IMG/VR virus record: IMGVR_UViG_3300031578_000055 | Location: 1 to 50,679 of that record | Length of the DNA stretch: 50,679 nucleotides | Origin: a virus | Taxonomy: Duplodnaviria > Caudoviricetes | Reading direction: 5' to 3' (one strand) | Part shown: positions 34,991-43,065 of the stretch, piece by piece | How positions within the stretch are numbered: the first letter of the stretch is position 1 | How the letters are laid out: the number at the start of each line of letters is the position of its first letter | Notes under the pieces: model-generated | What the model was told of the DNA's origin: nothing | Databases searched by the model: none | What the model saw: the letters and a program-made list of their open reading frames with translations, nothing else | Translations under genes and position numbers: made by a program

Positions 34991-35064
34991 ATATTAACTC
35001 ATATATATAAACCTTGCAACTATTATATTATTATTATTGACAATTTATAGAATCAATATATAAT
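34991..35064. promoter_or_regulatory. Divergent early promoters
   Basis: Leftward TTGCAA-17-TAATAT (35019-34991); rightward TTGACA-16-TATAAT (35037-35064). Confidence 0.65.
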
Positions 35065-40268: not shown

Positions 40269-40308
40269 TGAAGGCAATAAGCTTTGTTTTAGTTCTAAAT
40301 AATTAAAC

Positions 40309-40324
40309 AGCCTCTTCGGAGGCT
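40309..40324 (+). promoter_or_regulatory. UUCG hairpin abutting RBS (copy 2 of 3)
   Basis: AGCCTC-TTCG-GAGGCT then AAAGGAGG. Confidence 0.7.
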
Positions 40325-40338
40325 AAAGGAGGTAAATA

Positions 40339-40512: not shown

Positions 40513-40645
40513 TTTAAGAATGCCCGAACCGCTTAAAGGCAGGGGGAAAAAAGAAGCTGCATTTTATGGGATAAATATGTCTCAATTTATTGTTCAGGCT
40601 ATAAATGAAAAACTTGAAAAAATAGATATGCGTATAACAGACTAA
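40487..40645 (+). CDS. Ribbon-helix-helix protein (not in ORF track)
   Basis: QFNLRMPEPLK...AAFYGINMSQFIVQAINEKL; GAGGAG RBS. Confidence 0.8.
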   Translation: MKEKREQFNLRMPEPLKGRGKKEAAFYGINMSQFIVQAINEKLEKIDMRITD

Positions 40646-40691
40646 GATGTGCAATGCGGATAATAGTAGTTATGTGGAAAAGGGGGCTAAG

Positions 40692-41042
40692 ATGGAATGG
40701 ATTAGTGTTGAAAAAGAACTTCCGATTGAAGAAGATTATTATTTAGTATCGAGTAATTATGGAATAGTTGTTCGTAGTTTTAATGTTTATCATAATTGCT
40801 GGGACGATGAACAGGCAGATGACTATTGGTGCGATGCAGTAGGTGGGAATGTTACACACTGGATGCCACTACCACCGCCCCCTTCATCACATAACAGCGA
40901 ATATAAGCAATGCGAGTTTTGCCACGATACAAGGTTGTTGTGTAGTGGTGCCGGAGAGTGTGACCATGATGGTAGAGACTGTAGCGAAAGTGATAATTGT
41001 GGTGAATATACACCGGCACTATGTAAGCATTGTACAAATTAG
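40692..41042 (+). CDS. DUF551-like protein with Cys-rich tail (cassette A)
   Basis: MEWISVEKELP...VTHWMPLP; reads through the att site. Confidence 0.85.
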   Translation: MEWISVEKELPIEEDYYLVSSNYGIVVRSFNVYHNCWDDEQADDYWCDAVGGNVTHWMPLPPPPSSHNSEYKQCEFCHDTRLLCSGAGECDHDGRDCSESDNCGEYTPALCKHCTN

Positions 41043-41098
41043 CGCACTGCATATATTCGCAGAACGTTATACACAATTTGTGTCTAAAGGAGAATATA

Positions 41099-41263
41099 AT
41101 GAAAGTTGATTTTAAACAGAAGGCTACATTGGTAATTACACCGGAAAATGAAATAGAAAGTTATGCACTTAGAAAATGGCATGAAGGCTATGTTTCAATA
41201 GAGCCTTCTGAAGAATGTTTATGTGTAGAGTCAATTACAATTGACGACACAAACAATGTATAA
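41099..41263 (+). CDS. Hypothetical protein (cassette B)
   Basis: AAAGGAG RBS; stop lies in GTATAAC. Confidence 0.75.
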   Translation: MKVDFKQKATLVITPENEIESYALRKWHEGYVSIEPSEECLCVESITIDDTNNV

Positions 41264-41331
41264 CAGGGTTTATATGTCATTGATTACAACATCATATAAG
41301 CCGGAAACGTTATAGGCAATTGGAGGGTTAA

Positions 41332-41538
41332 ATGAGAGGAAAAGGTTTACTCGAATGGGAATGGGTTGCACATATTGAATATTCTGATTATGCCGATTCT
41401 TTGTTACATTTTAGTAGTTTAGATGCTACTGATATATTATCTGCAATAGCACATGTTTATCGGCATTGTCGGGAAAGTGGAGTTTTTGAAGTTATTTCTT
41501 TAACGCAACTGCCTATAACAGCAGATACACGGAAATAA
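41332..41538 (+). CDS. Hypothetical protein (cassette C)
   Basis: GGAGG RBS just after GTTATAG. Confidence 0.75.
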   Translation: MRGKGLLEWEWVAHIEYSDYADSLLHFSSLDATDILSAIAHVYRHCRESGVFEVISLTQLPITADTRK

Positions 41539-41591
41539 CAAGTGACTGCATATAAACCCGAAACGTTATGTACAATATTTTGGAGGAGTAA

Positions 41592-41834
41592 ATGGACAAT
41601 AGGCATATGGATATTATATATGATGCATTGTGTAATGACGATGACCCTGTTTTTTCTAGCGAGACTGTTACAGAAATGTATAATTATATCAAAGAATTGG
41701 AAGCTAAAATAAACCTGCTCCAAAATATTATTCATAACAACAGTTTAACAAAATCATGCAGCGGTTGTTGGGGGGAGAATAAGATTTGTTATGGTTGTAT
41801 AGATTTTAGTGGTTACAAAAGCATGACTTCGTAA
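41592..41834 (+). CDS. Hypothetical protein with CxxC..CxxC tail (cassette D)
   Basis: GGAGG RBS; reads through att site. Confidence 0.75.
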   Translation: MDNRHMDIIYDALCNDDDPVFSSETVTEMYNYIKELEAKINLLQNIIHNNSLTKSCSGCWGENKICYGCIDFSGYKSMTS

Positions 41835-41872
41835 AACTGCGAAACGTTATGTACAATATTTTGGAGGATTAA

Positions 41873-42097
41873 ATGAGTAGAAAACCAATAGAATCTTTTC
41901 ATATTGCAGGGATAAAATATGCCTGTTGTCAAGAATCAGATGTTAGAGAGCTTGAAGCTGAACTTGACCAGCTCCAAAACACTATACATAACATCGATTA
42001 TTCGAAATGTCCAGATTGTGAAGGGTACGGGCAAAGCATAAAAGGCTGGACGATAATGCCCTGTAAAAAGTGTAAGGGTACGGGACAAATCGTATAA
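41873..42097 (+). CDS. Hypothetical protein with CxxCxGxG tail (cassette E)
   Basis: GGAGG RBS; CPDCEGYG...CKKCKGTG; shares ELEA...LQN.IHN with cassette D. Confidence 0.75.
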   Translation: MSRKPIESFHIAGIKYACCQESDVRELEAELDQLQNTIHNIDYSKCPDCEGYGQSIKGWTIMPCKKCKGTGQIV

Positions 42098-42235
42098 TCG
42101 CGAAACGTTAGGCGAAATTAGGAGTCAGACATTGTTTAGTAGCATGGACGGCTGGTAAAATCTATTGTAGTGGATGCTGTCAATATATCAAAACTTCGCA
42201 TAATCGCAGAACGTTATGAATAATAAGAGGATCAA

Positions 42236-42430
42236 ATGGTAGACAACGTTAAAGATATAATTAAAGCGTATTGTTCAGTGCATTATCCCGGAGCAGATGG
42301 ATTATGTAATGATGGTTGTGGATGTTCTTTTGACGATTTGCAACCGTGCAGTAGTTCATGTATGCATTGTGTTCCAGCAAAATGGAATGGAGAAGAAGAG
42401 ATTTTTATAGAAATAGACAAATATCAATAA
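42236..42430 (+). CDS. Cys-rich small protein (last cassette-like unit)
   Basis: GAGG RBS after GTTATGA; GADGLCNDGCGC..DDLQPC. Confidence 0.75.
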   Translation: MVDNVKDIIKAYCSVHYPGADGLCNDGCGCSFDDLQPCSSSCMHCVPAKWNGEEEIFIEIDKYQ

Positions 42431-42502
42431 ATGAGTATATTATTAACATAAGGATGAACAATGGATACCATAAACCCGATTAAAAACCCAATTTTGATAA
42501 AG

Positions 42503-42531
42503 TTGACAATTACCCGTACAAGGGGTAATAT
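42503..42531 (+). promoter_or_regulatory. Promoter with inverted repeat, likely leaderless transcript
   Basis: TTGACA-17-TAATAT; ATTACCC-N7-GGGTAAT; ATG 7 nt downstream. Confidence 0.7.
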
Positions 42532-42537
42532 CATTTT

Positions 42538-43065
42538 ATGAATAAAATATGGAAAGAAATTAGGGGATATGATGGGTTTTATAAGATTTCTAATTGTGGA
42601 GATGTATATAATTCGAAATGGGATCGTCCAGTAAAGCAACATATAAACAAATCAAACGGATATTATGAAGTCTGCTTATACAAGAAGCAAAAACGAAAAC
42701 ACCATACAATACATAGATTAGTTGCTCTTCATTTTGTTGGTATTTTATCTGGCCGTGAATTTGTAAATCATAAAGATTCTGATAAACATAACAATGATTC
42801 AACAAACCTTGAATGGGTTACTAAGTCTGAGAATGGTATTCACGCAGGAAAAGCAGGATTACTTTCTGTTAATCTAAGAAAAAATGTAAATCAATTAACC
42901 AAAGAAGGGAATTTTATCAAAACACATATTAGCCTTTCTTCTGCAGCTAGAGAATTAAACCTGCAAAAAACAAATATATCATCTTGTTGTTATGGTAAAT
43001 CAAAAACATGTGGAGGATTCTTATGGGAATTCACTCAAAAGGATATAAACCGTGATCAATATTAA
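42538..43065 (+). CDS. NUMOD4-HNH-NUMOD1 homing endonuclease
   Basis: WKEIRGYDGFYKISNCG, IHRLVA, VNHKD...NLEWVT..EN, C-terminal SLSSAAREL...GGFLW. Confidence 0.92.
   Translation: MNKIWKEIRGYDGFYKISNCGDVYNSKWDRPVKQHINKSNGYYEVCLYKKQKRKHHTIHRLVALHFVGILSGREFVNHKDSDKHNNDSTNLEWVTKSENGIHAGKAGLLSVNLRKNVNQLTKEGNFIKTHISLSSAARELNLQKTNISSCCYGKSKTCGGFLWEFTQKDINRDQY

Follow-up and report, generated by a model that had tools for sequence, protein, structure and literature searches.

Anatomy of the array

The window analysed here is the entire IMG/VR virus record IMGVR_UViG_3300031578_000055 (50,679 bp, linear, G+C 33%, rated 95% complete). This tailed soil phage encodes a Mu-type baseplate, a tape measure, a portal and a terminase, and its replication/recombination block includes a DnaD-like organiser, a helicase, SSB, an SbcC-like nuclease and a VRR-NUC protein. 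An array of short genes separated by repeated sites occupies the + strand from the replication genes to a block of HNH endonuclease, methylase and terminase genes. A preliminary description, made from the sequence alone, had called it an integron-like cassette array with atypical attC-like sites. Our analysis points the same way: the region is probably an array of integron-type mobile gene cassettes with attC-like sites, served by a tyrosine recombinase of the host.

We found seven G|TT boundaries in the array, with GTT cores where the preliminary description had placed them (40669, 41066, 41309, 41565, 41846, 42107 and 42213). As it had also stated, six of the seven are preceded by GAAAC or AGAAC, and after six comes a Shine-Dalgarno sequence with the start codon ATG of a single short open reading frame (ORF) on the + strand; the distance, put there at up to about 35 nt, is 23-33 nt. 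The unit after 42107 has an 8-codon frame only. The right-hand motif is a 32-nt direct repeat present in six copies, with 66-78% identity to the reference copy. A site profile built from the window and from the sites of a second phage found 6 sites in the 50.7-kb window at E <= 2e-6, the next match being at E = 7.4; the six are self-matches by construction, and the informative part is the absence of the site elsewhere. AACGTTA occurs 10 times in the window in comparison with 4.2 ± 2.5 times in shuffles, and 7 of the 10 copies lie within 41063-42251.

Six left cores of the form YATAAC-A lie near the ends of the preceding genes (40633, 40890, 41259, 41514, 41733 and 41987). The preliminary description had paired the first six GTT cores with an upstream TAAC; six left cores were indeed found, and what had to be revised was the third unit, where the TAAC at 41536 gave way to the core at 41516, which pairs with the unit's own start. 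Reading of the left cores spans three frames (CAT-AAC, ATA-ACA and GTA-TAA-C). Hence, it is DNA that is conserved at these cores, not protein. The features of the array, with the five closing sites numbered in order, are as follows.

40633-42447, + strand: whole array, with five complete cassettes, one remnant and one terminal cassette
40633..40680, + strand: left border, a candidate primary (attI-like) site, made of a short hairpin TATAAC ... GTTATG (40633-40674) plus the first site
40653-40680, + strand: first site, AATGCGGATAA-TAGTAG-TTATGTGGAAA (11-6-11), with the first boundary at 40669|40670
40670..41066, + strand: cassette 0, ORF 40692-41042, DUF551 and a Cys-rich tail
Site 1, closing cassette 0, + strand: R'' extension 40877-40895 (CATAAC end), L'' 40897-40914, 128-nt coding loop, L' 41043-41060, bulge AGAAC 41061-41065, G 41066
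41067..41309, + strand: cassette 1, ORF 41099-41263, 54 amino acids (aa), no family
Site 2, closing cassette 1, + strand: R'' 41246-41264 (its TAA doubles as the stop codon), L'' 41266-41276, L' 41290-41302, bulge GAAAC, G 41309
41310..41565, + strand: cassette 2, ORF 41332-41538, 68 aa
Site 3, closing cassette 2, + strand: R'' 41506-41519, right half-site 41545-41565, inner hairpin unconvincing
41566..41846, + strand: cassette 3, ORF 41592-41834, CxxC...CxxC tail
Site 4, closing cassette 3, + strand: R'' 41715-41738, inner arms ~41741-41759 and 41820-41838, bulge GAAAC, G 41846
41847..42107, + strand: cassette 4, ORF 41873-42097, partial paralogue of cassette 3 with a DnaJ-type CxxCxGxG tail
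Site 5, closing cassette 4, + strand: R'' 41972-41992, L'' 41995-42012, L' 42083-42100, bulge GAAAC, G 42107
42108..42213, + strand: remnant unit, no ORF and no left core, right half-site 42193-42213 only
42214..42447, + strand: last cassette, ORF 42236-42430, 64 aa, Cys-rich

The DUF551 domain of cassette 0, named in the preliminary description as phage-type cargo, was matched in Pfam at E 3.3e-12, and the protein has one relative, at 32% identity. The cassette 2 protein, searched against 5.8 billion proteins, matched only itself. The remnant unit is probably a partial duplicate of the preceding site, and the arm of its right half-site is also able to pair with L'' of cassette 4. For the last cassette, no closing site was found, the best left-core match to its own start being 9 of 17.

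Hairpins, cassette ends and strand bias

Clear imperfect inner hairpins are present at four of the five closing sites, with inner stems of 11-20 bp, and their arms are those of the four hairpins in the preliminary description, including its example pairing at 16 of 19. The arms are 16/18 paired at site 1, 16/19 at site 4 and 15/18 at site 5; the fourth hairpin is that of site 2, and at the site ending at 41565 we found no convincing inner hairpin. In canonical attC, two or three extrahelical bases stand beside the L box; here a one-base indel interrupts the inner stem of site 2, as in several sites of another phage (G006, below), and the remaining sites have mismatches only. The left inner arm of site 2, GGGTTTATATG (41266-41276), is complementary at every position to the site 3 right inner arm, CATATAAACCC (41549-41559), and pairs worse with its own right arm, where the indel lies; this is either an extrahelical base or the trace of an older arrangement. 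Integron attC sites have the consensus outer boxes RYYYAAC / GTTRRRY and a length of 57-141 bp; the core-to-core lengths of the closing sites are 182, 56, 57, 119 and 126 nt, one of them above this range.

Beyond the cores, the two ends of each cassette match each other. In the inverted-repeat list, each GTTAT is followed by bases that can pair with those preceding the ATAAC close to the end of the same gene. We found this complementarity between a cassette's own 5' and 3' ends in 5/5 complete window cassettes, and not with the start of the next cassette. In an all-versus-all matrix of 3' and 5' ends, taken over 16 nt beyond the core, own pairs had 11, 11, 8, 14 and 13 matches, in comparison with 3-7 and a single 9 for other pairs, the exception being cassettes 3 and 4, whose starts are identical. 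The three core-adjacent bases covary (GTG/CAC, ACA/TGT, AGG/CCT and GTA/TAC). With DNA parameters, junctions rebuilt with the cassette's own start folded 8-11 kcal/mol better than the actual array junction at four of the five sites; at the fifth the neighbour's sequence is identical.

This own-end rule is what first defined integron cassettes, whose first bases were once part of their own site in the circular form. Own-end complementarity is the classic sign of circularisable integron cassettes.

Alternatively, the repeats might be the relic of a small gene duplicated in tandem along with its upstream region, and the hairpins functionless leftovers. Cassettes 3 and 4 are partial paralogues sharing a 52-nt stretch at 87% identity, and 42108-42213 resembles a partial duplicate. 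However, each cassette shows covariation in its own stem, conservation of the left cores extends over three reading frames, and the cross-genome data below contradict such an origin, with the same sites around unrelated cargo in unrelated phages and bacteria. We therefore regard a duplication relic as barely credible.

The outer stems are also asymmetric between strands. Among their transition mismatches, counted on the top strand in the window, G001 and a Spirochaetia array (below), 21 were A:C and 3 were G:T, in line with the A:C mismatches noted in the preliminary description. Since A:C on the coding strand is a G:T pair on the opposite strand, the stem mismatches are biased to bottom-strand G:T (p = 1.4e-4 against an even, 0.5 null). 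The bottom strand folds better at sites 1, 4 and 5 (bottom/top z of -5.8/-0.4 at site 4, and -3.2/-0.9 and -4.0/-2.9 at the other two), and the top strand folds better at two short sites. In the attC figures given by Nivina 2016, G:T pairs stand at 1.24 on the bottom strand versus 0.39 on the top; hence, the asymmetry in the window has the same direction as that of attC.

The closing sites overlap coding sequence. In the frame CAT-AAC-AGC-GAA-TAT (40890-40914, 41733-41759 and 41987-42012), the left core encodes H-N-S-E-Y, and (H/S/P/L)NS(D/E)Y before a Cys-rich tail is common to otherwise unrelated cassette proteins of the window and G001 (L138, reverse strand). Hence, a recombination-type site would impose a peptide on its host gene. 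The loops 40915-41042, 41760-41819 and 42013-42082 encode short CxxC...CxxC tails, one of them of DnaJ type by a weak Pfam match (E 2.4e-5, below cut-off).

The site family in other phages

A loose pattern scan gave at least 119 single matches, and re-screening of these loci for extra copies gave a 617-nt locus with three sites, which led to IMG/VR contig G001 (35.5 kb, 56% complete). Within 2 kb of G001, RAACGTTA occurs eight times on a single strand and never on the opposite one, in comparison with 5 and 5 for the reversed control. It has no common backbone with the window: tblastx gave a single match, a methylase at 34%, and at the DNA level only the sites are common, with up to 28 nt at 100%. 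Its array is placed after a terminase-like gene, unlike the array of the window.

The own-end rule holds in 7/8 cassettes of G001. Seven of its 13 TAAC pair best with the start of their own cassette (c0-c6), at 15-17/20 bases, and the other six reach at most 14/20, to a cassette that is not their own. Its mismatches are A:C in 11 cases versus G:T in 1. TTAG/CTAA compensatorily replaces TTAT/ATAA, and four of the eight right-hand boxes read GTTAGAT or GTTAGGC.

A tighter pattern added three phage contigs. G006 (47 kb, terminal repeats, rated complete) has ~7 sites, and its outer cores covary (ACAAC/GTTGT and CTAAC/GTTAG); G007 (88 kb, rated complete) has two sites; and G008 is a 4.4-kb fragment with family sites. 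Arrays of ~6-9 sites with phage-type ORFans are thus found in the window and two other phage contigs. The arrays of the window, G001 and G007 begin with a common border motif, in which 5-7 nt separate AATGCGKATAW from G|TTA. Across arrays, the cassette proteins share only the short site-encoded stretch; the exception is an XRE-type helix-turn-helix (HTH) protein in G007 and G008, which is not site-flanked in both. A search with the 17-mer GAAACGTTATGTACAAT gave five loci, all chance.

The tyrosine recombinase family PF00589 had no match in six frames of any of the five phage records, two of which are complete genomes, in comparison with 14/14 control genomes. These five phage records are therefore integrase-less by this search.

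The site family in bacteria

A 17-mer of the family occurs at 29 genome loci, and flanking sequence identified four genuine family sites. The four confirmed carriers are metagenome-assembled genomes titled Spirochaetia, Marispirochaeta, Desulfobacterales and Candidatus Tenebribacter. The Spirochaetia chromosome has five sites, all on the same strand and not more than 10 kb from first to last (L186, 3.106-3.126 Mb), which bound cassettes of 0.6-3.9 kb with defence and toxin-antitoxin cargo, as follows.

Spirochaetia cassette cargo: Cap4 nuclease, ABC-3C middle component (MC4) and AAA protein
Spirochaetia cassette cargo: DUF3010/kinase/TerB_N set
Spirochaetia cassette cargo: IS481 transposase, sole gene of its cassette
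Spirochaetia cassette cargo: MazE-PIN pair

Three of the five L186 sites share a 173-nt element, with the identical inner arm AGAAATATATGA / TCATATATTTCT.

The own-end rule holds here in 3/3 testable cassettes (3883, 3313 and 565 nt), with 16, 14 and 15 of 17 matches to the own end versus 7-11 for other starts. Hence, the atypical attC logic set out in the preliminary description was supported by own-end pairing in 5/5, 7/8 and 3/3 cassettes of the window, G001 and Spirochaetia arrays, by the leaning of the stem mismatches to bottom-strand G:T, and by the presence of the sites in integrase-less phages and in bacteria that encode the integron integrase, IntI.

IntI was found above the curated cut-off in three of the four confirmed carriers, in comparison with none of 14 control genomes, and also in two further Spirochaetia genomes with at least two 13-mer matches, for a total of 5/6 tested genomes. 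Among Spirochaetia, 4/4 carriers have IntI versus 25/81 genomes of that class. The regions upstream of intI in two carriers (L183 and L184) are true cassette arrays with ATAAC-A and GTTAT cores, and they served as the positive control for the own-end test. Their attC sites have a 4x4 spacer (ATCC / GCTG) and own-end pairing of only ~8-10 nt.

The Spirochaetia cassettes bear on the idea that the sites are regulatory, either as a promoter/operator for each gene plus an intercistronic stem-loop, similar to the promoter and stem-loop units (PeSLs) of T4-type phages, or as mRNA structures for translation coupling or RNase processing. In agreement with this idea, the motif stands at a fixed distance before the Shine-Dalgarno/ATG and includes a -10-like xxCAAT, the arrays of the window and G007 have immediately upstream a small DNA-binding gene, Arc-like (weak, below cut-off) or of XRE type, and PeSLs, as outlined in PMC2839356, flank ORFans and recombine to mini-circles. 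However, own-end pairing spans 3.3-3.9 kb multi-gene cassettes of a bacterial chromosome, and over such a distance, 3-4 kb with several genes, pairing can play no part in translation coupling or in a local promoter. In the phage, the sigma-70 scan flagged one of six right sites (9/12), promoter-like sites showed no excess (61 vs 55 ± 8), the stems have no T-run, the mismatches favour the non-coding strand, the cassette 1 pairing leaves the Shine-Dalgarno uncovered, and the motif is nowhere else in the genome. Regulatory cassettes are therefore improbable.

Comparison with attC, Xer and other known systems

The invariant AAC...GTT inverted outer boxes are present in the window, G001, G006 and the bacterial array. 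RYYYAAC/GTTRRRY is fully matched by one of the seven right boxes of the window (GTTAGGC at 42107); the rest are GTTAT, which is also found in the true attC beside intI of two carrier genomes. The sites further resemble attC and phage-borne integrase-less attC clusters (CALINs) in their one-gene units of a single direction, the imperfect hairpin with a variable loop, the favoured bottom strand, first bases that complete the cassette's own site, the location in a phage without an integrase and, in bacteria, the defence and toxin-antitoxin cargo. The differences are an outer stem of 14-24 bp that may include the Shine-Dalgarno, a 1x5 rather than ~5x5 spacer, an inner arm and bulge conserved in sequence across unrelated carriers, and closing sites that encode a C-terminus in three of five cases. 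The attC sites of the sedentary chromosomal integrons at L183 and L184 are alike in their ATAAC-A/GTTAT cores and own-end complementarity, and differ in the 4x4 spacer, another inner arm and the shorter own-end pairing; the phage-family profile misses them.

CALINs have been reported in phages before: Qi et al. 2023 (PMC9892861) give 17 in 10,705 phage genomes, with at least two predicted sites each, and describe 5/6 tested phage attC sites as recombined by IntI1. A full-text literature search for phage or virome integrons found no report beyond Qi et al. 2023, whose supplementary tables might list similar phages.

The enzyme that would act on the sites could be the integron integrase or host XerCD, since the family occurs in IntI-encoding genomes and never next to intI, and the inner arm is XerC-like; we favour the integron integrase, with XerCD possible. 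If XerCD were the enzyme, the cassette logic would be the same and the sites would be dif-like, inverted pairs with 6-nt and 10-nt central regions, folding as in CTXphi attP(+) or alternating C/D and D/C as in Acinetobacter dif modules. Indeed, the 32-nt site divides into 11+10+11; for the left hairpin half, read on the opposite strand, the division is 11+6+11, and the array's first site is 11-6-11. The inner arm, ACTTCGCATAA or AAATCGTATAA (other strand ATTTCGAATAA), matches the printed XerC arms of pdif/dif, such as ATTTCGTATAA and GATTCGCATAA, at 9-10/11. In a half-site scan of the whole window on both strands, with two consensuses and spacers of 4-12 nt, the two best matches (17/20) and five of the nine at >=16/20 were array sites. 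The layout also recalls the folded inverted sites of CTXphi as described in PMC4246890.

However, there were 324 matches at >=14/20 in this AT-rich genome, so the likeness is modest. The inner bases of the outer arm vary (TTAT, TTAG and TTGT) and covary with their partner, and it is TTATG that is best conserved in dif; invariance is limited to AAC/GTT, as in the attC sites of the published accounts. Carrier genomes are enriched for IntI, although almost any bacterium should have XerCD in any case. Since the outer arm does not resemble a XerD arm, Xer is kept as the main rival for the enzyme and not for the cassette logic, and we consider XerCD unlikely. Plain dif sites were tried as an explanation and downgraded in view of the variable, covarying outer arm and the 10-nt spacers of the right sites.

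Three further systems invite comparison. In CTXphi, according to the account in PMC4246890, the two sites are inverted, lie 90 bp from each other and have central regions of 12 bp and 5-7 bp; they are active only when single-stranded and folded, and a host enzyme exchanges one strand. Its attP(+) is similar to the sites here in having inverted sites with unequal central regions tens of bases apart and in depending on folding, and the proposed process below is similar in its host recombinase, one-strand exchange resolved by replication and tandem build-up by an intact site. That account concerns a single-stranded filamentous phage whose whole genome integrates at the chromosomal dif, whereas here single-gene units lie in double-stranded tailed phages and the outer arm is not XerD-like. 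The Acinetobacter dif modules, as presented in PMC13141974, are likewise small, with alternately oriented 11-N-11 sites, travelling inner half-sites and a similar XerC-type arm; their pdif sites all have 6-bp spacers and occur in Rep_3 plasmids of one genus, the relevant passages of that paper report no hairpin or own-end extension, and here every right-hand site has a 10-nt spacer. The PeSLs, in the description of PMC2839356, are also a repeated motif between small ORFans in a variable phage region, end at a Shine-Dalgarno and ATG, and have been proposed to form mini-circles. They differ in their consensus sigma-70 promoters, G+C-rich terminator hairpins and homology-driven recombination, and the array here has no promoter consensus, long hairpins with coding loops, and covarying cassette ends; no terminator-like site was found inside it, and one lies just past its end (42509-42529).

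Weighing the evidence

Several results weigh against integron-type cassettes served by a host recombinase. The spacer is 1x5 nt (A versus RRAAC) in every complete family site, so the asymmetric bulge of the preliminary description is constant throughout the family, in contrast to canonical attC, for which Nivina 2016 describes a central spacer with 5-6 unpaired nt per arm. Unusually for attC, three of the five complete closing sites code for the zinc-ribbon-like tail at the C-terminus of the protein of their own cassette. Measured against a null of local composition, in which A:C makes up 70% of such mismatches, the 21:3 strand bias is significant only at p = 0.042. No integrase was found among 58 ORFs (Pfam scan) and 52 ORFs (PHROGs scan) of the window, and PF00589 had no match in any of its six frames, as the preliminary description had stated. 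No cassette gene flanked by family sites on both sides was common to any two arrays.

The bacterial genomes add to these points. The preliminary description had proposed to look for the site family beside a tyrosine recombinase in candidate hosts; in the genomes examined, family sites were never beside intI (~290 kb apart in G002, the single gap measured), and the site profile had no match in the 19.5 kb upstream of intI in three genomes. The 13-mer core gave 24 matches in 401 Spirochaetia genomes versus ~23 for the reversed control. Hence, the family is rare in Spirochaetia. A complete integron, with intI and attI beside the array, was found neither in the five phage records nor in the bacterial carriers.

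Sequencing data on rearrangement point the same way. The array region is present in only two DNA contig runs, one possibly the source of this DNA and the other with the phage in small pieces, and no RNA run with it was listed; the contigs contained no joint between two G|TT points, the kind of breakpoint that the preliminary description had proposed to look for in related phages. Two joints in low-depth variant contigs of the two runs, 40913>41044 and 40915>41037, appear to skip the loop of site 1, with sides of 26-27 nt at 80%, and were rated unreliable. In another variant contig the match breaks off at 40668, a single base away from the first G|TT; it carries little weight. Separately, contigs of both runs join a 42652-like position, inside the HNH gene, back to a 40436-like position, with an identical stretch of 32 extra letters at the joint, which may reflect a second phage with its genes in another order, a duplication or a circle.

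Setting of the array in the phage

The relatives of the phage are few. In blastn against 50,697 phage records, 40300-42800 gave zero matches, and the 277-aa protein upstream of the array has no IMG/VR relatives. The terminase has as relatives one 4.3-kb IMG/VR fragment and one 2.3-kb metagenome contig, neither of which extends to the array, and none in genome contigs. By tblastn against phage records, it matches 721 records, of which the 25 best are at 31-35% identity and from many hosts. Hence, no host call could be made for the phage. No tRNA gene was found in the window, and an Rfam scan of it gave no match (Rfam is not known to hold an attC family). The 277-, 336- and 354-aa ORFs were tried as hidden recombinases and rejected: no meaningful PDB sequence match was obtained, and the Atlas look-up gave nothing usable (all scores <0.9; model pLDDT, predicted local distance difference test, 0.51). 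The cassette 2 protein is recorded on a 57,446-nt contig, in comparison with the 50,679-nt record, so ~7 kb more of the phage is possible.

A perfect sigma-70 consensus, TTGACA-16-TATAAT, at 35037-35064 heads the + strand block that continues into the array and is a likely transcription source for the promoterless cassettes. Within the remnant unit, the - strand has a promoter-like TTGATA-16-TACAAT (42164-42191, 10/12) facing back over the array; transcription from there would yield an RNA with the hairpins' better-folding strand.

Upstream of the array, the hairpin CAGCCTCTTCGGAGGCT (40306-40325) is followed by a ribosome-binding site, and the same hairpin and ribosome-binding site stand upstream of the array in the unrelated 88-kb phage G007 (L145, ~1277-1296). 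In both, one or two small DNA-binding genes follow, Arc-like in the window (weak, below cut-off) and XRE-type HTH in G007. The hairpin and these genes may form a shared 'platform' before the first site in the window and G007. At the other end, a free-standing HNH/NUMOD homing-type endonuclease gene (42538-43065), with its own promoter-like site (42503-42531) and hairpin (42509-42529), is located where the array stops without a closing site, and it may have replaced the end of the array.

Proposed mechanism and meaning

Each cassette starts with TTAT... right after the G and comprises its own Shine-Dalgarno, one small gene and a terminal folded site. The site plan is an outer stem xxxxYATAAC/GTTATxxxx, a 1x5 spacer (A opposite RRAAC), an inner stem of 11-20 bp and a loop of 13-128 nt. 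In the mechanism that we propose, a host tyrosine recombinase would act on the bottom strand in its folded form, cutting it between ATAA and C, which is G|TT on the top strand. Two directly ordered sites would release the cassette as a circle, in which the cassette's own first bases would complete the long outer stem. The circle would re-enter at the first array site (AATGCGKATAW-N5-7-G|TTA) by a single strand exchange resolved by replication, analogous to attI x attC and to CTXphi attP(+) x dif. The layout predicted in this way is that observed: the border would keep the short spacer and gain the first bases of the newest cassette, and at each later site the hairpin and 5-nt bulge of one cassette would be joined to the start of the older cassette that follows it.

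The attC-like cassette system described here is real, it recurs in phages that lack an integrase, and its sites have their own geometry; phage attC clusters as such have already been published. More tentatively, and with somewhat more doubt than conviction, we suggest that these are a distinct class of folded site, with a long outer stem into the cassette's own ribosome-binding region, a 1x5 spacer, a XerC-like inner arm and its own primary site without an adjacent integrase, by which integrase-less tailed phages may take up, shuffle and pass on single-gene cassettes through a host tyrosine recombinase, from a pool shared with bacterial defence cassettes across phyla.

Integrons are regarded as bacterial devices. 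If the sites are active, the integron cassette pool extends into virulent phages, and tailed phages gain a site-specific route for acquiring and reordering accessory genes, besides homologous and illegitimate recombination. The atypical geometry and the XerC-like arm bear on the relation between integron sites and Xer sites. As this site family is also that of the bacterial cassettes for defence and toxin-antitoxin genes, a single cassette pool would be open to phages and hosts alike. This suggests that phages and bacteria trade genes as cassettes and, if true, phages and their hosts possibly trade defence and counter-defence genes.

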